DNA of 64,000 nucleotides. It comes from Ginglymostoma cirratum. Its lineage: Eukaryota. Positions 1-64,000 of this stretch are shown piece after piece. The notes below the pieces were generated by a model. The model had not been told where the DNA came from. It did not search any database and saw nothing but the letters and a program-made list of their open reading frames with translations. The stretch covers positions 5,975,618 through 6,039,617 of the forward strand of contig JAHRHZ010000048.1 in NCBI GenBank assembly GCA_024137785.1. The letters are read 5' to 3'. Numbering within the stretch: position 1 is the first letter of the stretch; the number at the start of each line of letters is the position of its first letter. The translations under genes were made by a program, and so were the position numbers.

Positions 1-99
1 TAAACCCTTCTGATGAAGGGTTTAGGCCCGAAACGTCAAGTTTTCCTGCTCCTATGATGCTGCTTGACCTGCTGTGTTCATCCAGCCCCATGCTTGTTA
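1..99 (+). mobile_element. Penelope terminal-repeat mini-element (family A) with intact hammerhead at 7-40
   Basis: Near-identical to 25566-25658; begins with taaacccttc, the end of an inverted arm. Confidence 0.85.
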
Positions 100-433
100 G
101 CTGGACCAATAGTCTGGGACTGCATGCAACAAATGTCACACTCCTAGCTTTCTTTTAAAGCAACAGCTTGTTTTCATGTGGCCAATTCCACAACTTCAGG
201 ATGTCCCAAATTGCTTCACAACCAATAAAGTACTTCTGAAGTAATAACTATTGTAATACAGAAAACAAAGCAGACAACATGCATTCAGCGAAGTCCCACA
301 AAAAGCAAGATAACTGACCAAGTCATTGTCTATTCCCAGATGACTGATCTAATTCAGTGTGTAGATATTGTCCAGGTTACAGGAATAACATTGCTCCACT
401 TCTTTGAATACTGACATTGCTTAATCAAACCAC

Positions 434-761
434 GGGCAGCACAGTGGCTCAGTGCACTGCCGCCGAACAGCACGAGGGACCCGGGCTCAATACTAGCCTC
501 AGGCAGCTGTCTGCGTGGAGTTTGCACATTCGTCCTGTGTCCACATGGGTTTTCTCCCACAGCCCAAAGATGTGCAGGTTAGGTGGACTGGTCATGCCAA
601 ATTGCCCATAGGGTCCAGGAATGTGCAGGTTAGGTGGATTAGCCACGGGAAATGAAGGGTTACAGGGATAGGGTGGGGTGGGATGCTCTTCGAAAGGTCA
701 GTGTGGGCTTGATGGGCTGAATGGCAAGCTTGAGCACTGTAGGGGTTCTATCATTCTATGA
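434..761 (+). mobile_element. HE1-like tRNA-derived V-SINE
   Basis: tRNA head, gtctgcgtggagtttgcacatt V-domain-like core, duplicated gatgtgcaggttaggtgga, tail gattctatga. Confidence 0.85.
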
Positions 762-1641
762 AACCAGAGAGAGCAGTCAGACTGTTGGTTTAACATCTCA
801 TCAGAAAGGCAACAGCACTTTGGTACTGCACTGAAATAGCATTTAAAGCTACAAACTTCTGACTTGGAGAATGTTACCACTGAGCTGATTCATACAAGTC
901 AAATGCCACAGCTGTCTAACAAGGTCTATTATTTCTAGTATGCTTTGTTCTTTTCCTTTCCTTTCCTTTCCTTTCATTTCATCTCAAAGCCTACTGAATG
1001 CTGTAATATCTAGATACTTTTCTCCTTTTTGGGAAGTGACAGATTATTGTTGTGATTGGAAACCAATGATTGTATCAACCTTTGAATATACATGTACCAA
1101 ATAATTACTTAAACACTTGTGTAATCAAAGAAACATAGCAAACTATTGACCTAACAGATTAAAATTGATTGGTAAAGTTAATTAAGCCAGCTGCAAGCGC
1201 TTCATTACAAGTAATTCTAGACAGCTGCACATTGATGCTCCAGAAGTATTCAAATCTGGTATACAATGTACGGTCAATGCTTAAATTTACAAAACCAATG
1301 CATCAGGTTCAAGCACAAGTTTTAAATTTTGACCTTGCTTAACTATTTCCAGGCTCACTGTAAAAAAATATATTTTAATATGGCTATTTACTTCTTCCCT
1401 CCCAACGTAATTCCAGTTCTAAAGCCCTTTCAAGAGGGAGATGTTAGCAATGTAATACCACTGCAGTGGTACACCATAGGCATAAGGTAATGCTCTGGGG
1501 TACAAATTCAAATCACACCTGGAAAGTAGGAGAATTTGAATTCAATGAATAAAATCTGTAATTTAAAGCTAATCTCAGTAATAGCAATCATGACAACCAT
1601 CATTGATTACCATAAAATAAACAATTTGGTTTATTAATGGA

Positions 1642-1881
1642 GACAAAATCAGAAACTGCAGGAAAAGCTCAGCAGGTCTGGTAGTATCTGTGGAGAGGAA
1701 ACAGAGTTAACATTTCACGTCCAGTAACTCTTCATCAGAGCCCTTCTGAAGAAGGATCACTGGACCCGAAACGAGAATTGTGCTTTCTCTCCACTGTTGC
1801 TGCCAAACTTGCTGAGCTTTTCTAGCAATTTCTGTTTTTGTTTCCGATTTCCAGCATCCACAGTTCTTTGGGTATTTTTTC
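1642..1881. mobile_element. Family B Penelope mini-element, head-to-head arms with decayed hammerheads
   Basis: ctgaagaaggatcactggacccgaaac (+) and ctgatgaagagttactggacgtgaaat (-); attaatgga repeated on both flanks. Related single arms at ~3808-3926, 22935-23060, 30290-30415, 54280-54385 and 62960-63065. Confidence 0.75.
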
Positions 1882-2949: not shown

Positions 2950-3963
2950 CTGAAACGTTCACATATTAGAGACTAAAATAAGACCAATTTCAAACTTATT
3001 ACTTTCACACACTCAGAAAAATCTTGTCAAGAGACAACAATCTAAATAATGGATGACAACAGTGCAACTGTCACAACGACCATTATCATTTTGGTTTTAG
3101 ATATTATCATGGTTCACTATATGTTCAGTTTTTGCCCCTCTTTGCTCTTGTTCCCAGGCACAGAGAGGAAATGAGGGTTGACACTCGGTACATAAGCTCT
3201 CCCCTGCCACAAGACTGCCCCGGAATTTTCTCGTTGACCTACAAAATTGCATGCCTATTCTTGCGCCAAACATTATAAGCTTTAAGCCTATGGTGTAGAG
3301 GACGTTTACATCAGTTTAATGCAATATTCATTAACTAATTATTAGTTTCCATTTTAATATACAGGAAAAACAACCAGAAAGTATCATTCTAAACATTAAA
3401 GGTATTATCAATTAACAACAGTCTGTCATGTCCTCTGTAAATAACCGTGATGATGGTTTAAATAAATAAACAAACATGGTGTCCTCATTCTTCCAGCATT
3501 TCTCTTGCTCCATAGCTATCTTCCTATTAAGCTAATATGGGCTTTTATCAGAGAAAGTGACCCAATTTCCAATTGTGCGTTGCACCCGTAATCTGCCGAA
3601 CGACCAGCTCATTAAAAGTACCCAACCTGCAGAATATTTTCACAAAAAACAAATTTAAGGGGGAAACGTCCATCCTTGCCCATCTATTTCAACATTTTAT
3701 TTCACAACTTCGATTTGCAGCCTTTCCTTTGGGTTCTGATCCACATTAGACTTCCATTTAGACTAACAATGCTGCAGATCAAAAGAAGCTGCTCCAAACT
3801 CAAACTCTTCTGAAGAGTCACTGGACCTGAAACTGAATTCTACTTTCTCTCCACAGATGCAGCCAGATCAGCTCAGCTTCTCCAGCAATTTCTGTTTTTG
3901 TTTGAGATATTCAGTATCCACAGTTTTATATTAGAATCTCGAGAACTCCCACAACATTGGTCT

Positions 3964-4029: not shown

Positions 4030-4790
4030 CCTCGGTTTGCTGGGGTGATTGGCATTACTTCCGGTTCTGTTTTTCAGTGGTTTGTATGTCAGGTCCAGTT
4101 CAATTTGTTTGTTGATGGAGTTCTCGTTGGAATGTCAGGCCTCCAGGAATTCCCTGGCATGTCTCTGCTTGGCTTATGCTATTATGGATTTGGTGTCCCA
4201 GTCGAATTTGTGTCCTTCTTCGTCCATGTGTATTGAAGCCAGTGAGAACTGCTCATGTCTCTTGGTGGCTAGTTGGTGTTCGTAAAGGATCCCATGCCCA
4301 CAACCAATGACACTAACATAATATACAAAATACCATACAAGGATTGTACGAAATATTATATCAGCCAAACAGGAAGAAAACCAACAATAAGGATATATGA
4401 ACACCAACCAGTCACGACCAATTCTCACTCATCTCAATACACATGGACAAAGAAGGACACAAATTCGACTGGGACAACACATCCATCATAGCACGAGCCA
4501 AACAGAAACATGCCAGGGAATTCCTGGAGGCCTGACATTCCAACCAGAACTCCATCAATGAACACATTGATCTGGACCTGATAAAGAAACCACTGACAAA
4601 CAGAACTGGAAGTAATGTCAACCACTGGCAAACCGCTGAAGCATTGGTGTTCTGTCCCACTTGCTACTTATATATAGCAAGTGGGACAGAACACCAACGC
4701 TTCACCGGAGGCACACTGACGATGTTATCTAGCAGCCTGTCAAAACGCCTGCAGCCAAACCCACTGGCTCAGCGTGCAAGTCTACAACCC
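4030..4790 (+). mobile_element. Penelope-like element (Poseidon-type) 3' fragment with an inverted 5' segment (4030-4282)
   Basis: NIIYKIPYKDCTKYYISQTGRK...IYEHQ GIY-YIG, FDWD, REFLEAWHS; decayed hammerhead ctgacga...aaaacg near 4716-4747. Confidence 0.85.
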
Positions 4791-5425
4791 CAATCAGATA
4801 TATCAAAGAATAGGGATAAGGTGGGAGTGTGAAATAGTAATGGCAAATGAGATTCAAAGATGGCAGAAATACACCAATCAATGCTATAGATGTTACAAAG
4901 ATAATAAAATGACTCAGTTAAAGGCTCTGCATCTGAATGTGTGCAGCATTCCTAACAAAGTAACCGATAATGCACAGGGAAGTAAGTAAATACGATCTGA
5001 TCCACTACGGAGGAATGGTTTCAGGCTGACAACGACTGGGACCTGAATACTAAACAGAATATGACATTCAAGAAAAATAGAAAGCACTACAAAAGGTGGA
5101 GGGATAGCTTTATTATTCCAAGATAAAAATAGTCATAGTTGAACTTGGTTCCACAGATCAGGATATAGAATCAGTTTGGGTGGAGATGAGAAGCAAGAGG
5201 GGAAAGAAGCCACTAATGGGAGTAAGCTGACAGTAGCAATGATGTGGGACGAAGTGTACAAGAAAAATAACGGCTATTTGGCATAGAAATCATAATAATG
5301 ATAGGTGATTTTACTCTACGTATGAACTGGAAAAGTCATATTGGCAATATTAGCTTGGTTGAAGAGTACTTTCAAGACAATGCCTACGAACATCACAAGT
5401 TGGAAACAAACAGAAAGCAGGATAT

Positions 5426-5551
5426 TTCTGAGGGTTTAGGCCCGAAACGTCAAGTTTTCCTGCTCCTATGATGCTGCTTGACCTGCTGTGTTCATCCAGC
5501 CCCACGCTTGTTATCTCGGATTCTCCAGCATCTGCAGTACCTTTTATCTCC
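5426..5551 (+). mobile_element. Penelope mini-element (family A) inserted into an old CR1
   Basis: Family A sequence; TSD gaaagcaggatat at 5413-5425 and 5552-5564. Confidence 0.88.
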
Positions 5552-8500
5552 GAAAGCAGGATATATTTGACTTGCTATTGTGTAATGTGACAGGATTAGT
5601 TAATGACCTCAGAACAAAGCCAGCCCTCAGTAGCAAAGATCATATGTGGTTGAATTTTGCATCCAGTTTGAAAGGGGAAAGATTGAATCTAACACTAGCA
5701 TTTTAAACCTAAATAACAGCAACTAAAGGGCAAGAAAGCTGAGTTTGTTTAAGTGAACCGGCTTACCAGGCTCAAACTTAGATCAACAGAAACATAGTGG
5801 CAGACATTTAAGGGGATAATTCAGAATTGTCAGGAGAAGAGCACACTCATTAGAAAGAGAAAATTCTAAAAGGGAGGGTCCATCATCTGCGGTTAACTGA
5901 AGTTAGGGAAAGAATTTAAATTAAGGATAAAGCCTAAATGACAAAAGTAATTGTATTACAAAAAAAAAGTTGTGAAAACTATGGTACATCCTTAGAATGT
6001 CAATGTTGTTATTCAAATCCAATCCTTTAGATTTAAAAAGACTAATGGTAGACTATCTATAGACAACCATAAATCTAGAACAGAATTCCAGTCTAGCATG
6101 CAACTTCACATACAATTTATGATCCAAGTGAAGAATGCAATGATGTTTTCCAAGGAGTAACTCAGATAAAATGAAGTCAATCTGTGGTCAAATGACACCA
6201 AGTACACAGTACAGCTTTTACATTTTACCTAGTACATTTCAGCAATTTAATCTCTGTGTAAAACCATGGACTGTTAAGGATGATTCGATGAATTACCAAC
6301 TAAATAGTGTTTCAAGCAAAGCTATTCTCTGGATGCTTGAGATAATACAGGCACATTTCTTGGCCAAACCAAGTTTGCTTTGCACGAAGATTCACCACCA
6401 GAGTGTTGAATCAGTTCCATAACCCAACAGGACACCGACACCAAATCAACTAATTGATACTTAGTTGCATTAAAGTTCATATCCAGTGTGGGTCAAAGGT
6501 GGTCAGGCAAACTGCACAATCCAATTTTATTGTCATCTGTAGGCCACCTGTCGAAATATGTTTTAATGCTCCTTTCACCACTTAAAACGAGCAGAGAAAT
6601 AAATACCTAATATAGCAGGTGACTTTCATTTTCAATACTGTATTCAAACTAATTCGTGCATACTGCAGAATCATTTACTCCATACTGCTCCTTAGACGGT
6701 TGAATCCAAGACTGAGTCCCCATTATGAGAAATTTGTGAAAGGATGTTTGATGATTAAAAGAACTTGAAGTATAGTCAAGTCACCAGCACATTCAACTAC
6801 AGCTTCCATTTATACCTTTTCCCTGTAATGGATATGAAAAGCCTTCCTTCCTCTGTTACATTCCCTTTTACACCCTCAGCCTTGTACACCATGTGTCTGC
6901 TTCTTTTAAAAAAATTCAGCATATCTTCCTTTATTTTTGCTGTACTACTCTCACTGTCTTCATTTTGAGTTGAATTTTTACTTCTCCTCTATTTCTCAAT
7001 CATTTCTCCATCCCTTTTGTTTTCCCTTTAAGCTACAAATTTTGATTCAGTCCATAAATACTACCAACTGACAGTTGCTGTTTTCATTACTATTTCAGTA
7101 ACTATTGAATTGAAGTTGTGGCTCTGGTTCTTGTCTGTAAAATGCAAAAGTATGTGAATTATTTTAAATATATTTTCATTCACATAAATTCACAAGATCA
7201 CAAGTTATTGCAGTTGAGGGAGGTCATTCAGCCCCAATTAATTTATACCTCCATAAACACGCAAAACCACACTCTCCCAAGAAGGCATCCAATTGTTTCT
7301 CAAATGATTTCAGGATTTTGTCTCTGCAGGTCTTCCAGGAAGTCTATTTCATATGTTGATCATTTTTTGTATGAAGTAATTGCTGACATGAGCAGTAAAT
7401 TTATCATTTATTAGTTTGGACCTGTGCCCACTTATCTCACTATTCCAATTTAAGAATAAATCCAGAATAAAATTTTAAATTATCTTAAAAATTCTTCATA
7501 CATTGCATGTGTGCCAGCCCATACATTTCCTTAACTAATGCCACTAAAGCCCGCTCAGTACTGTTTGCGGGAGTTGGCGACGTACAATTCGGTGGTCACG
7601 CTATCCATAGACAAAATTCAGAAGTAATTCATTGGCTGTGAAATGCTACGGCACGTACTTGAATAAGAACGTCGCTACATGAGCAAATGATCGTTGAAGG
7701 CTTCTCTGGAAAGACATGCTTCCTGTTGAAAAGTCCAAGTTCGTCCAGATTTCACCACTGATTCCTTTGACATCCAATCAGTGTTTTTGTGCTGCACTTT
7801 TTCTCAACAGTTTTCTCAACGGTGCTCCGGTTTCCTCCCACAGTCCAACGATGTGTAGGTTAGGTTGTTTGGCCATGCTAAATTGCCCGTAGTGTTCAGG
7901 GAGGCGTAGATTAGGTGTGTTATAGGGGGATGGGTCTGGGTGGGATGGTCTGAGGTTTGGTGTGGACTTGTTGGGCCGAAGGGCCTGTTTCCACACTGTA
8001 GGGATTCTATGAAATCTCTTGATCAGAATGAGTCACAATACTCAAAGCACGTTACTTGAAGCAGCAGAATTTAGGATTCCCCAGTGTTATTCCACACTTT
8101 GCTGATTTTGTTGATTTCTGCCTTTGCATTTTTATCATCATGGTTCAGTCGAAGAAAATTCTGAGGTCTCTTTTGTGACATTAATCATGCGTATGCTGCC
8201 TGACTGTCTGTGAAATTCTTAAGCCAAGGAAATCTTGTTGCATCTTTATAGAGCATTAGTTAGGCACAGGCTCTGACAAACAGTACTGAGCTTTGATTTT
8301 CTTGGCATTGCTTTTCTTGGCATGGCTGGCACACATGCAACATATGCAGAATTTTTAAGATAAGAATAAATCTAGAATATAATTTTAAATTAAGTTGGAA
8401 TGGTAAAACAAATATGCAGTTCTGATCGCCACACTATTGAGAGGATGTGACTGCTCTGGAGAGGGTGCAGAAGAGATTCCAGAGGCTGGTAGAAATATGG

Positions 8501-11589: not shown

Positions 11590-11720
11590 CTGGGAAAGAA
11601 GCAACATCTGGCGATCAAAACAATAAAAAAAGTCAACATGTAACATTTTAAGGCCATTTTTACAAATCGAATTTAGGGTACAAATCAGTACCCACTAAAA
11701 TAAACTTTAAACTTTTATGT

Positions 11721-11853
11721 GAGATAACAGGCATGGGGCTGGATGAACACAGCAGGTCAAGCAGCATCATAGGAGCAGGAAAACTTGACGTTTCGGGCCT
11801 AAACCCTTCATCAGAAATCTCGGATTCTCCAGCATCTGCAGTACCTTTTATCT
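11721..11853 (-). mobile_element. Penelope mini-element (family A): inverted arm plus forward tail; intact hammerhead at 11783-11818 (-)
   Basis: Reverse complement of the family A repeat; flanked by ctttaaacttttatgt at 11705-11720 and 11854-11869. Confidence 0.88.
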
Positions 11854-12680
11854 CTTTAAACTTTTATGTTTTCAGTTTCTGATTCTTATTTTTTACCTCA
11901 AGTCCAGCTTAATATTATCCATTACATCAGCAGAACAACTGACAAGATTTATATGATCATTCCTTCTTAGTGAATCGGAATTTTTTGAGAGTTTCTCTTC
12001 AGTCTCAACCACTTCAAGTTATCTTAGTGGTGGATATATTGACAAACAGGTGAACTCGCCTGATTTTTTTTTTTCTCAGTATATTTTCCCAGGATTAAAA
12101 TAAATTCAATCAACATGTTCAGAAATGTAATTATACACCTTTGCAGCAAGTGGGGCTTCACCCTAGCATCTTGACTCAGAGATAGGGACACTACCAATGA
12201 TAGTACCACATACGGACCTTAACTTCAAGGATTAGTCCAAAAGAAAAACATCTGTATTTATAATTAGGAGGAGAGACTTTAGGTACAAGCTCTATTTCTA
12301 CTGGAGAAGTGAACACCATGATACATAGGAGCAGAAGACAGCCAATCAGCCCATCAAGTCTGCTCCACCAATAAGTTAAATCATGGCTCATCTGATAGTC
12401 CTCAACTCTACTTTCCTGCCTTTTCCCCCATACCCTTGATTCCTTTACTGATTAACAAGCTGTCTTATCTCAGCCTCGAATATACTCAAGGACCCAGCCT
12501 CTACTGCCCACAGATTCACTATCCTCTTGATAAAAGAAATTCCACCACATCTGCATCTTAAATGTGTAACCCCGTAGGCTAAGATAATGCCCTCTGGTCC
12601 TTGGCTCTCCCACAAGGGAAAACAACCTCTCAAAATCTACCCTGCGATTCTGTGATGTTTAGGTTTTTGAAATTGCTTAC

Positions 12681-12765: not shown

Positions 12766-13560
12766 CTACAAAAAAAAACAGGGAAGGCATTAATGTAATA
12801 TTTATTACATTTAATAAAACATTTTAAAATAGCACTTTACTCTCACTGCATTTTCTCTGAACCCATTGCATTAGTTTACAATGCCAGGCCAAGTCTACTT
12901 ATTTGTATGCTTTCAGAGTGTCCATCACTCTCTAGGTATCACATTTTAACTGGAACACCAACAAGTCACAACTAAAAAAATTCACAAAATAGTACATAAA
13001 AAAGGAAAAAAAAACACACAATCTCTTACTATTTTTTACATCCATAAGACGACTTAAGTATATTGAGAGAATGATGAGAGGGAGAAGCGGGTGAAAATTC
13101 AAAAAACCTTTCAAGAAAAATAATCAGCCTGTAACTGACCTCAGGAAATACTTATATAACTTGCCCACAAGGTATTACACAATAGTACCCTTGGAAGGAG
13201 AGATTCAAGTGATGATAATAACTATGTTCCAAAAGCTTTCAAAAAAAAAAAGTTCATTAATGCACTATATTGACCACTAGAAATAGGCATGATGCAAAAT
13301 ACCAACTATTGGGTTTTGAATTCGTCTAAGTTAATATCTGGGACTTTCATGGACTGAAACCATTTCTAAAAGTGACCAAAAACATGCCCTTAAACGGGCT
13401 ACAGGCATCACCTGACCATACAGGTTGGCCAAGTTTCATAGAACCAATGTGGATTGCACAAAGGACAGTCCAAATTGCAATTAACATTACAACTGAAGGC
13501 AATGAAATCAATCATTCCCGCCCTAGGAGGCAGGAAAAGGCTATTTCCCATCTGATCAAA

Positions 13561-13688
13561 GATAACAAAGTGTGGAGCTGGAGGAGCACAGCAGGCTAGG
13601 CAGCATCAGAGGAGCAGGAAAGTTGACGTTTCGAAAAGCTCCACACTGTGTTATCTCTGACTCCAGCATCGGCAGTTTTTACTATCTC
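13561..13688. mobile_element. Diverged family A Penelope mini-element with inverted arms
   Basis: gataacaaagtgtggagct ... agctccacactgtgttatc; includes gacgtttcg (hammerhead 3' half on the minus strand). Confidence 0.75.
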
Positions 13689-14086
13689 CAATCTGACCAG
13701 CGCTATCATTAGAATCTTTCCATGTTGGAGATAAACCATTACCTACAATTACCAAACCTAAACATGAGGAACTTAGCAGCTGGAATATACAAAGAAGCCT
13801 GTATTTCAAGAAGTTCTTTCTATGGCAGGAGGACAGATTGATTTTGATTGCAGAACCAAAATAGGCCAGAGAAGGTTTTTTTCCCTTCTGCCTCTCAAGA
13901 AGCAAGTGCAGTTACAACACCAACTGCAAAGCAACATCAGGAAACCAAGAATGTTAAAAATAAATATTTCTTTTATTTCTACTGATGACTCAAGAAGCCA
14001 GTTAATCAACCATGGTGCCAGGTTAAAATCTTACTACTCAATCCCACTGCTGCCAGGTTACTTTCATTAACAAGTGCTGTTTCTTT

Positions 14087-14345
14087 AGGGGTTGCACAGT
14101 GGCTGATGGTTAGCACCGTTGCTTCACAGTGCCAGAGACCCGGGTTCGATTCCACCCTTGCCTGTCTGTCTGTGTGGAGTTTGCACATTTTCCCAGTGTC
14201 TGTGTAGTTTCCTCCAGGTGCTCCAGTTCCTCCCACAATCCAATGTGCAGGTTAGGTGGATTGGCCATGAGAAATGCAGGGGTGGGTCTAGGTGGGGTGC
14301 TCTTCAGAGAGTCAGCCTGCTTCCATACTATAAGGATTCTGTGAT
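14087..14345 (+). mobile_element. HE1-like SINE (partial copies also at 7822-8011 and 27105-27256)
   Basis: Same head, core and tail as 434-761. Confidence 0.85.
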
Positions 14346-14713: not shown

Positions 14714-15650
14714 TGTGACAATACTTTGCCCTGGTTTGTTTTATGAAGAAAGGTTGAGACAGAGGAGAAGAACAGTCTGCTCAAAGCCCATAAAGTAAAC
14801 AGCTTGTGAGGCCTGGGATTTTTTTTTTTAAATGTAGCAATAATAGGAGCAGCCTGAATGGGTGGGGACACAAAACGGGATTTTTAATTTTACCTTTGAG
14901 CAGTTGTTGGGGTCTTGAAGCTGATGTGGAAGCTCCTGTTCCCCCTCTGTTACAGCTAAAAGCTGAGGCTCTCTTCCGACTGCTAAAGTTGCCTGTGAGA
15001 CAATCTATTTTACCGAATTTGCCTTTGCTAATGGTGCGATTATGGGATGTTACTCTATTGGAACAGTTAATTAGTAGTAGTTAATACATGTACTACTTTG
15101 TTAAGCATTTTGATAGAGTTAGAGTTAAGTCAATTCTTTTGTTTTTGTCTATTTGTACACTACAGTTAAAATACAAAGTGTGTTTTACTTAAAGTTTAGT
15201 AGTTTGACCAATCAAATTGTATTTGGAATGTGACGTTGAAAATACACTTACCTTGAAAATCAGAAAAAGTTAGGGTCTAGGATATTTTCACGGAATCCCT
15301 ACAGTGTGGAAATAGGCCATTCAGCCCAACAAGCCCAACCGCCCCTCCGAAGAGCATCCCACCTTAACTCATTCCCTTACCCCTGCATTTCCCCATGTCT
15401 AACCCACCTAACCTAAACATCCCTGGACACTATGGGGCAATTTAGCATGGCCAATCCACCTACCCTGCACATCTTTGGACTGTGGGAGGAAACTGGAACA
15501 CCCGGAGGAAACCGATGCAGACGTAGGGAGAATGTGCAAACTCCACACAGACAGTTGCCCGAGGGTGGAATTGAACCCGGGTTCCTGGCGCTGTGAGATA
15601 GCGGTGCTAACCACTGATCGACTGTGCCGCATTTGGTCTGATCCATAATA
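14714..15650 (+). mobile_element. Probable solo LTR
   Basis: Starts TGTGAC, ends ATAATA (decayed ATAACA), 4-bp duplication TAGC at 14710-14713 and 15651-15654. Confidence 0.55.
15292..15630 (-). mobile_element. HE1-like SINE nested in a solo LTR
   Basis: Reverse complement of the same SINE family. Confidence 0.85.
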
Positions 15651-19397: not shown

Positions 19398-21290
19398 TCT
19401 TGGCAGTTTGATCATTTTCAGCACTGGATCATGATAATTTAATGGTCTATATCATTATAGATTAATTAATGGAGGGACATTAATTGCTTGAACTTAGATT
19501 GAGATAGTGGCAGTATACAGGGCACTGGGGGAAAGGAGGGGGAACTATCAAGAGTTTTATAAAAAAAAAGTGGGGTGATAAAATATTTTTTTACACAGGT
19601 AGTTAGGATCTTGAATGAACTGCCTGCAACTGTGGTGGAGGCAGACTCAGTTATTATTTAAATAGAAACATGCAGAATCATGGGCAAAAGACAGGAGACT
19701 GGCACTAAGTCAAAATACTCAGAGACCTGATATAGACACCATGAACCTTTCCGCATCATAACAATTGTGTGATTCTATGTACCTGGACTCCCAAATTTCT
19801 TTGGACTTCCACTGTACCTATCTTTTCACCACTTAAAAAGTAGCCAGCTCTATACTTACATTGAAATAAGTTTGCCAATGTTTTGTCCAATCATTTCTTG
19901 GTAATTTTATACTTCAATTTACACTGCGTATAATGCCTCCTACCTGTGTGCCATTGGCATTTTGGATATATGGTTTTCTACCATATTATTCAAGTCATTA
20001 ATAAATATGACTAGTAGTTTGTGAACACAAAATCCTGTAGGATTCTACTATTTAGCCTCACATTAATTAGAGTAGCTGTCCATTAACATTTACTCACACT
20101 CCTGCTGCTCAGTCAATTACCCAACCTGGTCCGTAATTTACCATCACTTTCACCAGTTTTACATCATATTAAATAATTTTGAATAGCTTCCACTGACTGT
20201 CATTTCAACCATTAACAGACTTGTCCAATTTATTGAGGAAAGTTTCAGTCTCATCACATTGAATTCAGTCCTCCCTTAAATCTAGAAACATGGCCACCGT
20301 ATTGTGTATTTCCCTTTCAAGCAGAACACTGAATTCAATCATATTGTGACCAAATGATCATATTACAAGGCTGTTAAATGAATTTAGCTCATTGCTCATT
20401 ATTATCTCTAATGTGGAATGTCCTTTTTTCCCTAGATCATATTGTTGTAGAACTCCATCAAGAGCAGTCACTCTCTGACTTGGTCGCCTGCTACCCAATC
20501 CATATGAATATAAACTTGCCCATCAAAACCCACTGCCTAAACTTTATGCTTATCTAAATCTTAGTTAAGGGGTTTACTTCACATATGCCAACTTGGGCCC
20601 TGCACAAAACTTCCAATACAGTCTTAAATTCTATTTCTTAATTGTACCCATAAAGTTACCATTGTTACTTCATCTCATATCATGTCCTCCCTCATTACTG
20701 CAGTGATTTCATCCTTATTCACTAAAGCTACACGTCCTTACTATCATTTTCCCTATCTTTACTTATAATGTCTATATCTAAATCCAAGTCCTTGTCATTT
20801 TGCAGCCAGAAAGGATTATTTTAACCCTTTATTCCCTCTTTAGACAAGACTCGGTTAATTTGTTGAAACAGTTATTCAAAAATGGCATACAGCTCAAATC
20901 TTTGCTGTAAAAACAACTGTTTTATTCATTTCTTTTAATCAGATAAGCTTCTAATCAACTATTTCTACAGATGACAATTTCCAATTAAAATTTACACATT
21001 TACTCACCCATATTTCTATCCATCAGTGTTCAAATTTCAGTTTAGTGCCCAATCATATTCAAACAAACACACATGTCTATCTTATCCAATCATAACATGG
21101 TCTTACGAAACTGTAAATATATCCAACTGTAGGTACGTACTTGAGACTGTAAGAAAACCTATACTGTCCCTTTAACCTGCTTTCACAGCCACATATCATA
21201 CCAAACATGTTGAGTTTGTAGTTCATTCAGTTTTCTCTTTACAGTCTAAACATTGTGTAAAAATTACTGCTTGGACCACTATCCCCAACC

Positions 21291-21640
21291 AGCGCAGTAG
21301 CTCAGTGGTTAGCACTGCTGCCTCAGTGCCAGGAAGCCGGGTTTGATTCTAGCCTTTAGTGACTGTCTGTGCAAAGTTTGCACTTTGTCCCCGTGTCTGT
21401 GTGGGTTTCCACTGAATGCACAGTTTCTCCCACAGTCCAAAGATGGGCAGGTCAGGTAGATTGGCCGTGTTAAATTGCCCAGTAATGTCCAGAGATGTGC
21501 AGACTAGGTGGATTAGTGATAGCAACTGAGGGGTTACAGGGTTAGGGTAGGGAACTAGGTCTAGGTAAGATGCTCTTCAGAGGGTTGGTACAGACTTGAT
21601 GGGCCAAATGGCCTCTTTCCACAATGTAGGGATTCTATGA
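21291..21640 (+). mobile_element. HE1-like SINE
   Basis: gcagtagctcagtggttagcactgctgcc head, V core, tail. Confidence 0.85.
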
Positions 21641-25660: not shown

Positions 25661-25902
25661 TGCACTGAACATATGCTGAGCCTTCAAACACGGGGAGTGA
25701 GGTGAATGGTCTGAGGGACTGGGAGCGGGAACACTGACCCGAAACCCAGGCCCAGTGGGGAAGAAAGAGTGGGAGAGGGGGAAGGGGCCCGTGCGGAGTA
25801 GGGGCAGGTATGGAGGGGAAAGGGGGAGGAACGCTGACCGTCAACCCCATCTCAATGCCTCCCACACCCGGGAGAGTGAAGATGACAGAAAACCGCGCTC
25901 AC

Positions 25903-25990: not shown

Positions 25991-25998
25991 CTGACCTC

Positions 25999-26006: not shown

Positions 26007-26038
26007 CGCCGACGCTGCGCCGTTGCCGAGTCGCGGCG

Positions 26039-53849: not shown

Positions 53850-54760
53850 ATTGCATCTATTAACACTCCATAGTAGCTATAGAATTCACCTCTAGAAGAA
53901 GATGATCACATTCGTCATCTGGGATGTTTGGTGGGATTCTGGTGTATACATAGGTGACTGCTAAGGCTGATTTGGGCTCAAAGGTTCTGCTGTGAGGATA
54001 CTACAGAGGATTACATTTTGGGTGATTCAGTGGCCAGGGTTTCCCCTTGTTTCTCCTGTCTGTCTGCCATATGTGCTTTCAAAGGAGGCTGCACTGTCTT
54101 TTTTAACTCATTGTGCTAGATGCAGTGTTGTCAGGACATGAAACTGATATCAAAACTTCTATGTAAAACCTTCAGATTGCCTTAGAACCCCTCCTTTGAC
54201 TGTCAGGAGTGTACTACTGACTCAGGCTCTCCCTAGTTAGTGAGTGTCAAGCATTCTGGCTGCAAGACCAAACCAGTTCAGCTCTGATTCTGTTTCTCTT
54301 TCCACAGATGCTGCCAGACCTGATGAGTTTCCCTCGCACATTGTACGTGTAATTCCAGTTTCCAGAATTTGTAGTACTTTGCTTTTAGTTGAGCATTTAA
54401 TTCACTGCCACTTCTCTTCCAGGTGTGCCCACACTGAAGAAGTTCTGCTGTCCTCTCCAGTGGGATTGCCAATTGAATCTTTCAGCTTGGTTCTCCTTCA
54501 TTGCTTTCTATTTCCCTCCTACTGTTTGACTAAGTGTTTACCAAAACTTGTTTTCACACCAACATCTCCTTCCTTGATGACTGTCTCTGGCTCCAACTTA
54601 ACCCCTGTGGATTACAACGGCTCCAACTTAACTCATGTGGATTACAACCAAAGTTCCATCCTTTATTTTTTGAATCCACCCAGGATTGCAGGTATCTCCA
54701 AGCCATTTACTGTTCTTTGGACAGTTGTTCTTGCCACATCCTGAGATCCACAATCAGTGC
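53850..54760 (-). mobile_element. Possible RTE-clade LINE remnant containing a 30-bp tandem duplication (54589-54648)
   Basis: Weak resemblance to RTE 3' ORF; the duplication is seen directly. Confidence 0.35.
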
Positions 54761-56164
54761 CATGAGCTGCCACATGCACACTTTCCATTCGACAATAAGA
54801 CCACAAAATGTAGAAGTAGAAGTAGGCCATTCAGCCCATCAAGACTACTCTGTCAGTTGATGAAATCATGGCTGATCTGATAATCCTCAACTCCACTTTC
54901 CTTCACTTTCCACACACCCTTTAATTCACTTACTGATTAAAGATCTGCCTATCTCAGCCTTGAATACACTTAATAACCCAACATCCACAGCCCACTGTTG
55001 TAAAGAATTCCACAGATTTACTACTCTCTGAGAGAAAAAAAATCCTCCACACTTTGGTCTTAAAAGTGAAATTCCTTATTCTGAGACTATGCCCTCTGGT
55101 CCTAGACTCTCCTATGAGGAGTAACACATATCTGTGTTTACCCTTTCAAGGCTCCTAATAATCTTGTATGTTTCAGTAAAGTTGCCTCTCATTCATTTAA
55201 ATTCCAATGAGTACAAGCCCAAACTACTCAACCTTTTGTGCCCCTCCATACCTGGTATCAGCCTAGAGAACCGTCTCTTGTCTGCCTCCATTGTATTTGC
55301 CTTCCCTATTACCTGATGCATTTAGATACTAGCTTTTTGTGGATTCACGGATGAGGACTCTCAATCCTTTTGTTCCGTCGCCTTCTGTAGTCTTTCTCAA
55401 TTTAAATAATATTCAGCTGCTCTATTCTTCCTACTAAAGTTCCAGCCCATCAATTTGGCACTGCTATTCAATTAAATTATAGTTGATCTGATAATCTTCA
55501 AAACCATGTTGTCTCAAGCTCTTCATTAGAACTGCCCCATGTAACCACAAAGCTGTCCTGGTCCCTAGTTCCATGTCATTCTTCACTTCATTTGACGCCT
55601 TAACAAGAAACATTTTCCCGTCCTGTCTGGTATTAAAAATTGCAAGCTCCAATAACTCACAGATACCAATATCAGTCAGTATCGTTCATCCATGCCCAAT
55701 CCCTCTGAATCAATACTTTCTTCTAATCCATATCTTATCATGTATTTGCTATACTTGCTGACCTTCTGCTGTCTGATACTGAGCAATCTGTTATCAGTAA
55801 AGGTAGCAGTCATATATTTAAGGTGAGAGGGAACGATTTAAAGGGACCTGAGGGTGGTGCGGGTATGGACTGAACTGCCAGAGAAAGTGGTATAGATGGG
55901 TATAATTACAACAGTTAAAATATATTTGGACAGGTATATGAATGGGAAAGATTTAGAGGGATCTGGGCTAAACAAAAGCAAATAGAATTAGTTCAGTTTA
56001 GGATACCTGGTTGGCATGGCTGTGTTGGGCCATAGGATCTGTTTTTGTGCCTTATGACCCTATGACTCAATGACTCTGTTTTAACCCTTTATTCCCTCAC
56101 TTCATTGCATAATCAGGCACAAAATGTCATTAAAAGTTTTTTCAACGCCTTGGCATCTGTACTC

Positions 56165-58185
56165 ACATCTTAGGATAGGAGTTCTCTGTCTACTGACCTT
56201 TTCATCCACCTGCAATAGTTTCCCTCCACTTGGGCCCTCCCTCTGGCATCTTACCTCGCTTTGATCTCTTCATCAGTGACATCAGTCTCCTTAATTTCTG
56301 TGCTGTCCTCACCTGCTCTAACCTGTCTCCCTCTGAATTTGTTGCACTCTGTTCTCTCAGGCCTAAACCTGACTTTATTATCAAATTTGCTGACAAGAGC
56401 TGTGGTGTTGTTGCCCGGTGTACTAGCATCTACCTTGCAGGGGCTGAATGCCAACTCCTAGACTTCTTACTTTCCCTTAAACCATGACTCCACCCCACAG
56501 TATCAAGCTGTAGTTTCCAGAACTATCATTGATCTCATCTCCTTTGGAGATCTTCCTTCCATAGCTTCCTACCTCACAGCCCTCCAATGCAGCCCAACCT
56601 GCTTCTACCCCCTTCCCAAAACCCACAAACAGGATTGCTCCGGAAGAGCCATTGTTTAAGCCTGTTCCTTTGCCTTGAACTTATTTATTCCTATCTTGAT
56701 CCTATTTTTCCTTCCCTCGTCCAGTCTCTTCCCATTTAAATTTTTGATTCTTCTGATGCTTTATTTTCCCATTTCCATTTTCCTGGCCTCAGCCGCCTCC
56801 TCTTCACTACATATGTATAATTCTTCTACCTGTCTGTCTCCATCAATAATGTCAAGGCTCTTTACTTCTTCTTTGAAAGGAGGCCTGAACAGTTTCCATC
56901 CAACCACCATCCTCTTTCACCTGGTTGAGTTCATTCTCATGTTGAATAATTTCTCCTTGAACTCATCTCACTTTCTCCAAGTACAAGGTGTGACCCACAT
57001 GGGTCCTAATGTCTGTCTGTCTCTGCGGTGTGGTGAGCTTTACTTGTTTCAGTGTGACTTGGACCCCCTCATATATCTTTTCCTCTGATTTGACAATGGT
57101 ATCATCAGTGCCTCTTCCTGCTGACCTCCAGAACAGGAAAAATTCATCAGTTTAGCATTTAATTTCTATCCTTCTCTCACCTTCCTCTGGAACATCTTTG
57201 ACTATTCCCTTCCCTTCTTTGTTCTCACTTCTGGGGTAGGCTGCCCAGTGAATTCCATTACAAACCCAGCAACTCCCATAGTTACCCTGACTATACTTCG
57301 TCACATCCTGGTTTCAGCAAAGGTTCCATTCCATTCTCCCAGTTCTCCTATTTCCGTTGCATCTGTTCCAATGTTGTCAACTCCCATAGGGGTGCTTCCG
57401 ACATGTCCTCCTTTTTCCTCAACTGAGGATTCTTTCCCTCTTCACTGCAGTTGTCAGGGCCCTGAGCTGTGTTGAACCCATTTCCACACTTCTTCCCTCA
57501 CCCCTTCTCCTCTGTCCTAGAACAATGATAGGGTTCCCATGTCTTCACTTTCCATCCCATCAGTTCCTGCATTGAAAGGATCCTCTGCCACTTCTTCCAC
57601 CTCCAGCAGGATGTCAATACCAAAGACATCTTCCCCCTCTACTTCCCTTCCGTGTCAACATACCACAGGAAATATTCACTCTGCAATGTCCTGGTCTACT
57701 CCTATGTCACTCCAAATACCTCTTCATCACACCTTCCCTCCACCACCCCCCACATCCCTGCCCCACCCCCACAATTACCCCTTCCCATTCAATTGCTGAA
57801 GGAGCCAAGCTTGCCTTTTTACCTCCTTCTACCTCATTATCCAAGACCTCCAAACTCACCTTCCAAGTGAAGCAAAATTTACATGTACTTCCACCAGTTT
57901 AGTCTACTGTATTCATTGCTCATAACATGGTCTCCTATGCACTGGGAAGACCAAATCTAGACAGGGTGAACACTTTGCAGAACACCTCCACTCTGTCTGT
58001 AAGAATGACCCCAACTTTCCGGTTTCTTGCAATTTTATTACACCATTTTGTTCTCATGCTAACAGTTGGTACTGACCTGCTGCAGTGTTTCAATGATGCC
58101 CAACACAAGCTGGAAAACAGTACCTTACTTTCTGCATAGGCACTCAAGAGTTTTTAAGGGCTCAAAATTGAGTTCAAAAACTTTT
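56165..58185 (+). mobile_element. Old degenerate Neptune-type Penelope element (RT to GIY-YIG)
   Basis: IIKFADKSCGVV (IIKPADKGGAVV-like); 57180-58180 is collinear with the younger copy at 24270-25230. Confidence 0.8.
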
Positions 58186-58660
58186 TCAAAATTCATTCCC
58201 TAACTGCTGCGTGAACTGACTGGCTTGACAGGACCACTTCAGAGGGCAGTTAATTAAGAGTCAACCACATTGCTGTAGGTCTGGAGTCACATGTAGGCCA
58301 GCTTGAGTAAGGACAACAGATTTCCTTCCCAAAAAAAGTTAACCAAGTTTACAAAATTCACAATGGTTACATGGTTGACATTTGGCTAACTTTTAATTCC
58401 AGATAATAATTGATTAAAATTTTACCACCTGCCACGATAGGATTTGAACCCAGAGCATTAGCGTGGTTCTCTGGATTACTAGTCCAGTCACAATACCATC
58501 AAGTCAACAGCCCTCATCATTCAGTCCACGAACTCTTGTCCTCCATTTTGATTACACTTTGCTCTCCAAACCCTGTACCTTGTTTCTATGGGTTTGCTCT
58601 TAGCAGAGTTGACTTTATTCTCTGCTATTAACACCTACCTTTAACAACTATCCTGCATTT

Positions 58661-58800
58661 ACAAAAACAGAAATTGCTGGAAAAGCTCAGCAGGTCTGGG
58701 AGCATCTGTGAAGAGAAAATTAGAGTAAACATTTCAGGTCCGGTGACCCTTCCTCAGAACTTCTGAGGAAGGGTCACCGGACCTGAAATGTTAACTCTAA
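58661..58800. mobile_element. Family B Penelope mini-element ending in an 81-bp palindrome
   Basis: 40-bp arms at 58720-58759 and 58761-58800 (1 mismatch, 1-nt spacer); CTGAGGA...GAAA on both strands. Confidence 0.85.
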
Positions 58801-61129
58801 GTTTCACAGAGAGTGGCCATCTTCAGAAATCCACTAGCTACAGAGAGACGGGCATAATCAGACGGTGACTCACTAACACTGGTAGTCCTTTGAAAACAGG
58901 CTTTTCAGATTAGTGGCAGCATGCATGGAGGATTGGCCTTTGTAATTACCAAAAAAGGCAGGAGCTATTCTATTTTTGAATATTGTTTATTTGTTTATGT
59001 ACCAGATGATTTTATTTAGTCTTTTTACAACATACCACTTGATTGATCAATTCTCTCAAGCAGCAGAAAATGCCACGGTAAAAAGAGAACTACTAAAGCT
59101 ATTGGACAGATTCATTAATTATATGTAAAATTATCCATAAAAGCAAAAAGAGATGCAAGTGTCTCAGCAGTGTTTTCCTTATGTAACGTATGTGAACTGA
59201 AACCACAATACAATAATAATAGGAACTATATACTGTTCTGATGATAGGTCAGAGACCTGAATTGGGATGACTCAGAAGATTTTTAAAAGTGGCAGATGGG
59301 ACTGAGGTACAGTAGTTCTGCGTCTATTTTTGTCAGATTCCATTTTTTTTTGGCAGGGAGAAGAGGGTGGATTGAATAACGCAGGAATAAAACCCAATAT
59401 TGGTGAGGCCATTTGATTTGACTACTGATCAAAAATACACCCAATTTTGATGTTCCAATGGCCTTAATCCACAATGTGGGAACAATAATTTTATAGAGAA
59501 GATATAAACATTGCAAAGGGGTCTTTTTAAGTATCATGATTTTAAATCCCCAACCTTTTAAAATTGAAAAAATACCGCATCTTTCAGGCCCTTCAGGAGT
59601 GCATTGATTGACAAGCAATCTGGTGCAGCTCAGAAAGATGCCATTAGCCACCTGTTTTCACAATTTCAGTAGACTCCAGTCTTTAAATCTCCCAAAGTCC
59701 GTTATTATATTTGAACCCTTTATGAATGATTGGCTGAGTTTCAAAGGATACAGAACCGTTAGTAGGGGCCATGTTCACTTTTTGATTGACAATACAAGGA
59801 AGTTATTAAAGAGCAATTTGTCTTTTATGTAGCAAGGGAGATAGATGTTTTTGTAACAGAATAATCATGGGAAGGTAAATTTAAGAACCGGAAAGCATTA
59901 AAAATTTCTGAAAGGATTTTATGAATTAGCAGGTTTTTAATATGGAATACACATAAGTGAGAGCTGTATCTGATTGTTAGAAGTTGTTTTCATCATTTCT
60001 ATTTCAAATCCATGGCTTCTAGAGATTTGCTCTTTAATGATACTAGAAAAGTATCATTATTATGGACCACACAAAGAAGTCAGATTGGAACTATGATGGC
60101 ATGTAGGAACCATGCATAATGTAAAGGGGTGTAGAGGTAGCATGTGGAATATGAAGCTGCATGGACAGTAAGAAAGGGCAAGGGGAGATTTAGCAGGGTC
60201 ATGGGCAACATGAAGAGTTTTGGAGCTGGCAGATGTGAAGATGAAAGTGCATGGAGGATGAAGAAAAATAGAGGGATGACCATCGTGAATATGAGGGGAC
60301 ATATGGATATGACTGGCATGGAGATGGTATGAAGGCATTGACATACATGTGGCCAGGGAGGGTGCACAAGATACATGGAGGGATGAACGAAAGCCCACGC
60401 AATACAGCTGCAATCAGAGGTTGGCAGCCATGTATTCAGAGGGAGTGGTGTCTGCTGCCAACAATGCTGCCACCAGAGACCCGAGATCAGTGAGGAATCC
60501 TGGCTACAATTGAGTGATGGTGGGATCAGGTTGCAAAATGCAGTTTTGGTAGAGGGGGTGGGGGGTGGGGAGGGAGTTGGGCTCAGCAGCAAAGGCTGTC
60601 AGTGGGCAACCTCTCTTCATGATGCTAGGTCCCTTGATGAGCGACCTATCCTTGACATCTACAGTCAATCTTGACAGGGTTAACTTAGTAGGTTTCCCAC
60701 ATGGAGGGCCCCTTGCATTGTCACTAGGGTGGGGGGGACCTTTAATTGCCATAGAGGCAGGTGAGATTCCCAGTTGTAATTAAATAACCCTTCCAGACCA
60801 CCAGACACCTGAGAGAAGGCATTAATTCCAGCCAATGAATCTTCACTTATGTGTGAACTACTTACGTCTGAACTACTCCTCATATTTGAATTCTTTGAAG
60901 ACCATGCTGTCAATCACATTCAAAATATGAAAATATCCTTTGAAAGTATAACATCCAGAATCTCAAACCCCTGCTAAAGCCAACTGTCCTGCCCAACACA
61001 AATAACAAAATATACTTAATTTATTTCAGCTTCTGATCTGCAATTTCATAAGGATGATAGATTTCCTAGCCTCTATTTTGACAGAGTGAGAACAAAGAAG
61101 AAAATATGAATTTTAAGCATTAATTTCAA

Positions 61130-62455
61130 ACTCAACTGAGTAGGCAAAATTTCCAATCCTCATCAATTTCATCTGCTATCTTTGCAGCAGGTATTCCATA
61201 TCTTGCACAAACCAACTTTGCACACGCTTTCAACTTGAAAACCATGGAATGCTTTACTGCAGAGAAAATTAGTCTCCTGAGCATTTCACAGGAAAGGGGC
61301 ATTACCTCTATAAACACGCGGCTTTGGTCACATGCCATCAACATGTCCATGTAGCATGAAATTTGTTCTGTTGATTAAAGGGAGAGAAGTGCCTACAAAA
61401 ACATCATGGATTATTTGACTGCAATCAGCAGAGCCCTGTAATCAGAGTTTAGCACATCTAAAACAAATTGAGTCTGCCTTGCCATGTGTCTCTACATTCC
61501 ACTGTACTTTATGCATCAGCTGCATGTTGAAATGGACCATATGTTACCTCTGTACTGTAATAGTAAACTGCATTCTAATTCACTCTAATGATGTGTCCTA
61601 CTGCATTTAAGGATTCACTAGTGTAAAGGCTTATTGCACTTCACAATGGTCTTTAGTGCATCTAGCTACTTATCACACAGTGGCCACAACAGGTGGAATT
61701 CTACTCCTGCACCTATTGTCTATTGTCTACTGTCTAATTCCAGGGAATGACCCATTTCTCTTAGAGTATACTTGGTATGCAACCTTGAAGCTACCGTACA
61801 TAATAACATCCCATGTATGCATTAAAAGCCTTCAATTCCTTGTTCTGTCTTACGACAACTGCTGGCTGCTAACATAGGAACATACTGGTCAATACCTGTC
61901 TTTCAAGCAGCAGTCTTATTGCCATAATCTTGATAAAATCCTTTGAACCTGGACAGAAAGCAATGAAAGCTTTGAAGGACCCGTTGACACATTCATCACC
62001 TTTTCTCATGTCAGCTAAGAATAATATTAGAACAAAGGCACCACAAGGTGCATAGAGCTCCTGGGATGACCATCAGCCATACTCGACATTTTGCAGCAAC
62101 ATTTCCAGATCAAGAGAACAAATCAGGATACCTTCAACAATATCAATCTACCATGGTTTTGAAGAGCTTCATAATTTTGTCATCAAACATCTGTTGGAAA
62201 TAAACCAGATGAAGGAGCAGTGAACTTATCCACAGCTTAAAGCAGAACAAGATTGGCCACTGCATGCTATCATATTCCCGATGAGTCCTCTATGTAGAGT
62301 GCATAACTTGTCTTCTAGTATCTCTAAAGATCAGATCTCTAAAAGCTATGGATTTGAAATAGAAATAATGAGAACAACTTCTAACAATCAGATAAAGCTC
62401 TCACTTAAGCATATTTCACATTACAAACCTGCTAATTCATAAAATTCTTTCAGAA
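61130..62455 (-). mobile_element. Heavily decayed Gypsy-like pol remnant
   Basis: SRVFIEVMPL...LKAC...ARYGIP resembles an integrase core; upstream RNaseH/RT-like traces are only weakly readable. Confidence 0.4.
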
Positions 62456-63273
62456 GATGTCCACACTGAGATGCAGTTTCAGATAACTCGAACTAAACAG
62501 CCGTTTTTTTTTTATACAGGGAATGCTCAACCGAGTGCCACATCAGCCTGAGGTGCTCTGATGAAACGTTAGCTTGCTCTCCATGGATGCTGACCCATTG
62601 TGAAATCCAGCATTTTTTGTTTTCAGTAGATTCCAGCATCTGCAGTAATTTGCTCCAGCTGCCATGTCAGCCTGATGTACTAAACAGCACAGGAGCACAC
62701 TTTGTATCCTCCCAAATCATTCTCATCAATTGTCCTCAACACCAAATCAATTCAGATATCAATTCATTCATCTACTGTTAACATATCCATTCAGAAAGAA
62801 AATATCTGGGTGCAGTTTAAATGCAATTTAACTAAATATAATTATTTTGATTAGAATATTTGGTTAAAGATTATTATCCCCAAGGCTTTCCCTTTATGAT
62901 GATATTTGTTTTATGTATTACAATGTTGAGAAGCATCTAAAAGCAGTAAACAAAAAAAAAAATCCAGGAACTGCAGATGCTGGAAATCAGAAACAAAAAC
63001 AGAAATTGTTGGAAAAGCCCAGCAAGCCTGGCAGCATCTGTCGAGCCAAGGAAGAGTTAACGTTAATATTTCTGTTTTTGTTTCTAAAAGCAGTACCAGT
63101 GACAAGAGTAAGTCATGTTCTTGGTTGTATGTAGTCAAATCCATTTGTGATCCAGTTAACTCTGTAATTGGCACCATGATTTCAGTAATTTGTTCTTAGA
63201 ACTTGCCTACATAAATGAAGAGGAATAAATGTTATAATCTAGCTGCAAGACAGCCCTTCACATTTGGAGGTTA

Positions 63274-63427
63274 GAGATAAAAGGTACTGCAGATGCTGGA
63301 GAATCCGAGATAACAAGCATGGGGCTGGATGAACACAGCAGGTGTTCATATTAGGCCCGAAACGTCAAGTTTTCCTGCTCCTATGATGCTGCTTGACCTG
63401 CTGTGTTCATCCAGCCCCATGCTTGTT
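63274..63427. mobile_element. Family A Penelope mini-element, inverted plus forward arms
   Basis: TSD acatttggaggtta at 63260-63273 and 63428-63441. Confidence 0.88.
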
Positions 63428-64000
63428 ACATTTGGAGGTTATATAGTTAGTAATGTGTCTTATAATGTAGCAGTGTGTATGTGTGAGTCCCCACCCCCTT
63501 AAGCTTTTCAGAATGCTCCAGCCTCTTTTGTACGATGTTCCCTGTCACTCTGGCAAAAAAATCCTGAAAGTACAAAGAGAAAAATGGTTCTTTATCCTTC
63601 CTAGCTTTTTTTAAAATTATAACTTAAGCATTACAGCAGTAGTGTCTCTACAACTAGAGTAATACGTCATAGAGTCATACAGCATTGAAACAGACCCTTT
63701 GATCTAACTCATCCATGCTGACCAGGAATCGCAAACTAAACTAGTCCCATTTTCCTGAACTAATTTTATGAAAGAATATAGTTTCTCTGCTCATTTGAAT
63801 CATCTGATTTGTGTATCCAAATTGTCCTTTTTCAAATTAATTCACAGGATATGAACATGATTGGCAGGGCCAGTATTTGTTATCCATCCCTATTCGCCCT
63901 TGAGAAGGTCATGGTGAGCTGCCTTCTTGAACCGCTCCATTGCTATAGGTGGACCCACAACGTTGTTAGGGGAGGAATTCCAAGATTTTGACCCAGCCAC

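Follow-up and report, generated by a model that had tools for sequence, protein, structure and literature searches.

In the endonuclease-bearing (EN+) Penelope-like elements (PLEs) of the Neptune clade, the terminal repeats (pLTRs) carry a minimal hammerhead motif, and published insertions show an inverted pLTR with a 5'-truncated copy placed head-to-head, a tail of 30-40 bp that often stands at one end only, and a target duplication of variable length (PMC3846280, PMC8557442). The origin of the tandem and inverted structures of PLEs and of the one-sided tail is called undefined in these papers. Here we describe a 64-kb stretch of the Ginglymostoma cirratum genome (contig JAHRHZ010000048.1, positions 5,975,618 to 6,039,617 of the forward strand; hereafter the window) that holds many short insertions of such a repeat. 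The shark copies share the listed features, and their coding relative has the CX2-5CxxC linker before the GIY-YIG endonuclease domain that the published elements have. Unlike published Neptune-clade insertions, nearly all consist of the pLTR alone (100-300 bp) and start sharply at hammerhead stem I, and their duplications measure 12-16 bp as against 8-10 bp in the rotifer examples (PMC3846280, PMC8557442).

Three further systems are close. Dispersed minimal hammerheads number about 4,000 in the coelacanth and 9,000 in Xenopus; those of PLEs have an extra base between A9 and G10.1, a palindromic minimal stem III and a short stem I, occur mostly singly or as opposite-strand pairs from truncated PLEs, and show low activity even as dimers (PMC4209133). 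The shark motifs are alike in structure and in arrangement. In PAc, a Poseidon element of Anolis carolinensis, the protein, a predicted dimer, cuts and extends both target strands, and uncleaved RNA is copied from two internal reverse transcriptase (RT) start sites that bound the tail (PMC11167929). The shark inserts would resemble PAc in all of this; PAc differs in belonging to another clade and in a pLTR running ~145 nt upstream of the ribozyme, and the main text on PAc does not assign the two sites to opposite ends of a single insertion. Non-LTR retrozymes (PMC7229834; bioRxiv 10.64898/2026.07.22.740005) share a type I hammerhead, pLTR ancestry, long duplications and many dispersed monomers, and are defined by head-to-tail repeats and a circular RNA running from cleavage site to cleavage site; head-to-tail repeats were not seen in the window. 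The shark repeat may figure among the chondrichthyan families of the second of these sources. Our literature search, in which subscription papers were thinly covered and which did not extend to Repbase or Dfam, found nothing on shark pLTR-only insertions (minis) or on two start sites paired in one insert.

The terminal repeat of a Neptune-type element at 17 sites

Self-comparison and a profile search of the window identified one homologous unit of 100-135 nt in 18 copies at 17 sites, counting a copy nested at 28139 (E 3e-34 to 2e-3; best E in a reversed-window control 1.5). Because the profile was built from the arms of 16 of the 17 sites, these match it partly by construction; the site at 40543 was recovered independently. 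The original prediction, made from the sequence alone, had named at least 13 insertions, and these are real, as is the near-identity of its family A (1, 5426, 11721, 25564 and 63274), whose copies are 97-100% identical. Subfamily A' is 80-92% identical to A, identity among B copies is about 65-90%, and A and B share ~66-78% over longer alignments; a tree split A+A' from B+C, the latter a single divergent arm, with full support. The claimed high density was also borne out locally, the 95% ranges for this one window being 167-444 copies per Mb and, for intact ribozymes, 17-160 per Mb. The part of PMC4209133 available to us mentions no shark in its dispersed hammerhead set and has no table of end points or duplications. 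Extrapolated to a 3.2-Gb genome such as that of the whale shark, the window, which is possibly unrepresentative, would imply 5e4-5e5 intact motifs; a Penelope-like expansion has already been noted in the whale shark genome (bioRxiv 10.1101/443036).

As predicted, the family A unit is the 3' repeat of a coding element at 24265-25660. Its open reading frame (ORF; 24265-25293, +) encodes an aligned RT thumb, a CX4CxxC linker and, downstream of the linker, a GIY-YIG endonuclease (E 6e-5) with a CxxC inside the domain. Neptune/Nematis-type EN+ PLEs are characterised by an RT with a C-terminal GIY-YIG endonuclease that has a CCHH motif, and the element conforms to this. A CT-rich 3' untranslated region (UTR) and a family A pLTR follow (25294-25660, +; pLTR 25564-25660 with an intact hammerhead, C3 at 25568, and a proximal end, without tail or duplication). 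The endonuclease ORF (24689-25291) shares 93% identity with a whale-shark protein, and a whale-shark relative has RVT_1 together with GIY-YIG. The linker falls within the CX2-5CxxC pattern that marks Neptune and Nematis PLEs (PMC8557442), and together with the vertebrate distribution it points to Neptune rather than Nematis. The unit is therefore tied to a PLE pLTR, and to that extent the claim of a coding parent stands. The copy itself is a dead sibling, since it is 5'-truncated, frameshifted near 24534, interrupted by a stop at 24686 and has no duplication of its own. As the active source it was ruled out on the truncation, frameshift and stop and on its 15 private amino-acid changes in 336 columns.

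Within family A we counted two non-CpG differences in 390 nt and one 4-bp deletion. At 7e-10 mutations per generation (PMC10587355) this divergence corresponds to millions of generations, with wide error. Family A alone thus appears young for a shark, a statement about divergence and not about current activity; the predicted recent activity fits this family and not the diverged B copies.

Arms end at two fixed sites and at stem I

Positions within the unit are numbered from hammerhead C3 as 0. At 9 of the 17 sites two arms lie head-to-head within one insert, so that the picture of simple mini-elements had to be abandoned for these. Twelve A/A' arms have a visible 3' end, and every one of these ends lies at +89..+93 (six arms, proximal) or +126..+129 (six arms, distal); both sites carry a copy of one 7-nt motif, 33 nt apart, and the intervening tail is ~33 nt long. 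Family B arms end at the two equivalent sites, the distal one being less sharp. Every two-armed insert with both outer ends readable had one proximal and one distal end (7/7; P 0.008 if the ends were independent), and the tail was on the forward arm in three and on the inverted arm in four. The arms at 11721 together span the unit about once and meet in 2 nt of microhomology, while those of the other two-armed inserts have 20-100 nt in common. At the junctions we see brief microhomology, snap-back on short palindromes or filler.

A comparable product is known from L1 twin priming, where the other nicked strand also primes cDNA synthesis and a single duplication comes to enclose a 5' inversion. 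In L1, priming depends on homology, at poly(A) and at internal sites that vary. The shark inserts differ in having two fixed start sites, no clear target homology and arms that can overlap.

The 5' ends were equally regular. Among 27 arms listed, 12 stop within the unit (0.005 stops per nt) and 15 reach C3; 14 of the latter end at most 7 nt upstream, the exception being the ORF-bearing copy. Leaving out 54287, which could start at the cleavage site, 13 of 14 arms end at the edge of hammerhead stem I. For family A, where the true upstream UTR is known, three of four stop at this edge (P about 2e-4), and two copies match the parent exactly up to -4, the first base of stem I, and not beyond. Because 14 of 15 arms stop at the first stem, the copies do not form the smooth 5'-truncation continuum that had been set against a discrete class of minis.

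We found no tandem array of the unit (0 of 11 tandem-repeat rows in the window) and no head-to-tail or tail-to-ribozyme junction. The cleavage junction is uncleaved in 6/6 A/A' copies that match the post-cleavage motif, and none of the arms has a clear start at the cleavage site (+28/+30), only the old copy at 54287 being ambiguous. As far as sequence can tell, these copies came from uncleaved linear RNA.

Target duplications

Five exact direct repeats had been predicted, and repeats of 13, 16, 13, 13 and 14 bp indeed flank the inserts at 5426, 11721, 28004, 37918 and 63274; we add a sixth, of 13 bp, at 62952. Exact duplications thus occur in 6 of 17 intervals tested, compared with 0 of 300 random intervals with at least 11 exact bases. 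Imperfect repeats were found at 1640 and 62552 (chance gives 2/300 and 1/300, respectively), and the repeat at 13560 (12 bp, 2 mismatches) is within the chance range. In some duplications 1-2 bases could equally be element end. The search was negative for the ORF-bearing copy and for 3807, 22948, 30315, 40543, 54287 and 58661. Nick-site contexts at nine targets showed no clear motif (local AT 0.48-0.75; window 0.60). The proposed origin from Penelope terminal repeats, by retrotransposition with 13-16 bp duplications, is supported.

Most copies lack an intact ribozyme

The catalytic cores had been described as kept. A strict descriptor found just four intact minimal type I hammerheads (C3 at 10+, 11814-, 25568+ and 28135-), against 0.03 per shuffled window; elsewhere the core is deleted, mutated or missing, and the two arms at 58661 are borderline. 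With a stem I of just 3-4 bp and a stem III of 1 bp these are of the minimal PLE type, and not canonical type I hammerheads with loop 1-loop 2 contacts; the intact motifs have the extra base after A9 and a palindromic minimal stem III. Stem I and II sequences were as predicted, apart from the stem II of A, which really has 4 bp and closes with a G.U pair. In the alignment 88% of cells pair, falling to 24-38% when slid. The claimed covariation was weak and not significant: 22-168 of 500 shuffles scored at least as high as the real alignment.

When the ribozyme regions of A and B were folded by minimum energy, as monomers or as two copies, the hammerhead fold did not appear, so cleavage activity is without computational support. 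Most copies have lost the core, so nothing suggests that cleavage is under selection once a copy has inserted. Searches against Rfam gave no match to a hammerhead family and only chance microRNA-type matches on hairpins, and none of eight folded units was unusually stable (z -1.6 to +1.2). The tail pairs with +46..+52 in several folds; the seven core pairs hardly vary and are therefore uninformative on structure. Just 3' of the ribozyme in family B, at about +28..+49 (for example 28086-28105, -), there is a branch-point-like, polypyrimidine and CAG acceptor-like sequence, present in two of three B copies tested and absent from A.

A proposed two-site insertion mechanism and its alternatives

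The explanation that we favour, with moderate confidence, is that these are pLTR-only insertions of shark Neptune-clade PLEs, made by the element's own RT/GIY-YIG protein on an uncleaved linear RNA template. The duplications suggest that the endonuclease would cut the two target strands 13-16 nt apart. RT would start internally near +90 and +126, bracketing the ~33-nt tail; the ends themselves are seen, and priming there is proposed by analogy with the anole element. In two-armed inserts every nicked strand would prime its own cDNA, one from the proximal and one from the distal site, and joining of the two cDNAs, by microhomology of 1-6 nt, by snap-back or with filler, would leave them head-to-head in an insert that has a single tail. 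Any cDNA not joined earlier would run off at the first base of stem I. Most simply this point would be the transcript 5' end, in which case an ordinary PLE RNA primed within its 5' pLTR would yield 100-130 nt of product and the minis are probably by-products. An internal promoter starts Penelope transcripts within the upstream pLTR (PMC2377424), so the stem I edge is plausible as a transcript start. The ribozyme would be a passenger, lost from most copies, and not what defines the unit. More tentatively, the protein might act as a dimer that primes both nicked strands at two fixed RNA sites on a transcript starting at the hammerhead's first base, an event recorded perhaps 10^5-10^6 times in the shark genome; this fuller version is possible, and we offer it as a conjecture.

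Several points weigh against this interpretation. Published PLE inversions have been modelled as self-priming on an antisense template (PMC3846280), and palindromes at the junctions of 13560, 37918 and 62952 also fit such self-priming, although that model does not obviously predict the rule of one proximal and one distal end. The data come from one window with no full-length 5' pLTR, and the transcript start was not observed; an initiator-like match at -4 is weak, with four such matches in the 277-nt UTR. The anole pLTR runs ~145 nt upstream of its ribozyme (PMC11167929), and in D. virilis helix I is an intron end, not a start site (PMC4209133). Three of the 14 edge-bound 5' ends (30315, 54287, 62552) were placed by eye, and those of B, which has no parent UTR in the window, were placed where the copies cease to resemble one another. 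Our model of stop rates is a crude one, as arm joining also sets ends, and the middle segment of the 37918 palindrome was excluded from the arm count. Finally, 17 minis against one pLTR-bearing ORF copy would also suit an independent non-autonomous family.

Such a family, in which the same chemistry acts on a dedicated short RNA of solo-pLTR master loci that propagate themselves with Neptune in trans, is in our judgement unlikely. In its favour, in addition to the numbers just given, no ORF in the window is linked to A', B or C, a discrete transcript is expected to leave a sharp 5' boundary, pLTR sequences are enough for trans-mobilisation in a rotifer, and non-autonomous PLEs occur in Chlamydomonas (PMC3846280, PMC8557442). 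Against it, the A minis differ from the ORF-bearing copy by 0-1 base in 78 and form no clade of their own, and among the copies in the window no internal lesion and no A-family junction is common to several loci; this sample is very small for recognising mini-specific subfamilies. We also found no usable Pol III A/B-box pair (one-mismatch matches occur only in A, where they abut, and not in A' or B). The anole protein needs RNA as far as ORF +172, with a mapped start loop at +111-118 (PMC11167929), so that copies ending at the priming sites may be without the binding site. The self-propagating non-autonomous system of the original prediction is unproven.

It is quite improbable that the 5' boundary is instead an RT stop or template-switch hotspot at the border between ribozyme and CT-rich UTR in the 3' pLTR of long RNAs, or a splice or processing site there, with the minis as extreme 5' truncations. 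In favour of this, the 25564 copy, which has UTR upstream, shows that RT can cross the boundary, family B has AG at -4/-3, the D. virilis intron ends at helix I (PMC4209133), and most PLE insertions are 5'-truncated (bioRxiv 10.64898/2026.07.22.740005, PMC8557442). Opposed to this, RT has already unwound the whole ribozyme when it arrives at the boundary, A has no AG there, and no upstream exon is common to the arms.

That the copies are non-LTR retrozymes, whose tandem units cleave themselves as dimers and form circles that are copied by RT, is very improbable and the retrozyme-like label largely refuted: four copies do have a minimal type I hammerhead with palindromic stem III, duplications are long, and pLTR-derived retrozymes are reported in one chondrichthyan (bioRxiv 10.64898/2026.07.22.740005), yet an edge off the cleavage site, with ends at -4 and +90/+126 rather than +28, and the lack of any tandem or head-to-tail arrangement in the window fall outside the definition of the class, as do the uncleaved junctions.

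Anatomy of the individual inserts

Besides the pLTR of the coding copy, family A comprises four inserts. The first is two-armed and cut by the window edge (1-99, +), with an inverted arm at 1-10 (+5..+14) and a forward arm at 8-99 (-2..+89, proximal) whose hammerhead is intact (C3 10). A single arm at 5424-5551 (-4..+127) lies on the plus strand within 5413-5564, has a 4-bp deletion in the catalytic core, and is flanked by an exact 13-bp duplication (5413-5425 / 5552-5564). The two-armed insert at 11705-11869 joins an intact inverted arm (11721-11818, -4..+93; C3 11814, -) to a forward tail (11817-11854, +89..+126) within its exact 16-bp duplication. That at 63260-63441 has an inverted arm (63274-63343, +57..+126), ~7 nt of filler and a forward arm (63351-63428, +12..+89), with no complete ribozyme and an exact 14-bp duplication.

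Two A' inserts are two-armed. At 13546-13698 the inverted arm (13560-13632, +19..+92) meets a forward arm (13638-13688, +74..+126), with a possible 12-bp duplication (2 mismatches). At 37900-38575 the arms (inverted 37916-37992, +51..+129; forward 38523-38562, +51..+90) surround a 400-N gap, with a middle palindrome folded at stem II and an exact 13-bp duplication. A perfect 105-bp inverted repeat flanks this gap (37953-38562), with ~24 nt of hairpin sequence found in no pLTR of the window; its apparent length may be an assembly artefact. The third A' copy is a full unit with a dead core (28139-28268) at the junction of a two-armed B insert (27989-28310), which consists of an intact inverted arm (28004-28139; C3 28135, -) and a short forward arm (28267-28296) within an exact 13-bp duplication. 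The A' unit has a 6-bp repeat on its flanks and is either a nested insertion into the B insert (28004-28297) or the product of an RT switch between the RNAs of two families in one event.

The remaining two-armed B inserts lie at 1630-1890 (inverted 1639-1739, proximal; forward 1744-1877, distal; 12-bp duplication with one mismatch; both cores decayed), at 62936-63095 (inverted ~62950-63064, distal; snap-back at the stem III palindrome and a short forward arm that ends proximally; exact 13-bp duplication) and at 58661-58798 (inverted 58661-58761, -4..+93; forward 58761-58798, -2..+35, with unrelated sequence beyond; cores borderline and no convincing duplication). Both arms of the last carry the same non-consensus C-to-T changes on opposite strands (58731-58830), reflecting the same template or arm-to-arm conversion, and 3' of them is a minus-strand core-like motif without stem II. 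Single B arms with a tail and a dead core are present at 3806-3926 (+; no duplication found) and 22941-23062 (-), and one with a decayed core and a proximal end at 30305-30414 (+). An old B arm with a tail (54275-54383, +) has no ribozyme core, either because this was deleted internally or because the arm starts close to the cleavage site, and a short old B fragment at 40543-40598 (-) is the weakest match (E 0.002). The divergent single arm C (62552-62659, within 62536-62675, +) has lost stem II, and the two mismatches of its 16-bp duplication fit decay of one CpG.

Genomic setting and neighbouring elements

Minus-strand exons of EFL1, best matched in zebra shark and whale shark, occupy the left part of the window. 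Together with the whale-shark match of the endonuclease ORF, they mark the host as a shark, most likely a carpet shark. A GC-rich stretch at 25690-26150 is probably the first EFL1 exon and promoter; the Neptune copy stops just before it and is oriented towards it. The UTR and pLTR at 25294-25660 lie upstream of the first EFL1 coding exon and antisense, probably in intron 1. The intact minimal hammerhead at 11786-11818 (-) is sense to the EFL1 pre-mRNA and sits between two coding exons; the portion of EFL1 within the window has no second intact sense hammerhead.

A further PLE-like insert at 4033-4830, which we take to be Poseidon-type, has an endonuclease-like C-terminal ORF in two head-to-head arms (86% identity across 236 bp). 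It also contains a hairpin of 76 bp (4632-4709) and, at ~4717-4750, a motif resembling a decayed hammerhead; one zebra-shark relative was detected. An old, heavily decayed Neptune-type RT and endonuclease ORF without attached pLTR lies at 56190-58210 (+); a connection with the B insert at 58661 was weighed and not shown. Other RT pieces of long interspersed element (LINE) type occur at 31300-35911 and 54795-55221 (RVT_1 E 3.5e-16 for 35504-35911). An unrelated dispersed repeat of ~350 bp (67-84% identity; 424-754, 7809-8014, 14094-14281, 15278-15642, 21290-21650 and 36299-36638) is probably an ordinary shark short interspersed element (SINE).

Implications for Penelope-like elements and sharks

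The shark repeat appears to consist of pLTR minis of an already known PLE class, and the end-pairing rule and stem I boundary offer a mechanistic lead. The minis are mostly dead leftovers of a PLE end, not circular-RNA retrozymes, and look like inert debris for the host. Their value lies in being very short, which exposes both ends and the junction of single insertion events. The fixed ends hint at the insertion route of a poorly understood class of elements, and one proximal and one distal start per insert, with a 5' stop at stem I, is a sharp and testable prediction. If the density in this window holds genome-wide, the published counts of minimal hammerheads in coelacanth and Xenopus would be far exceeded in sharks. 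If the two-site dimer mechanism is true, it would account for two long-unexplained traits of Penelope elements, the inverted pLTR and the tail at one end only; the ribozyme would then be seen as a device that processes 5' ends, and sharks would bear one of the largest hammerhead loads among vertebrates.

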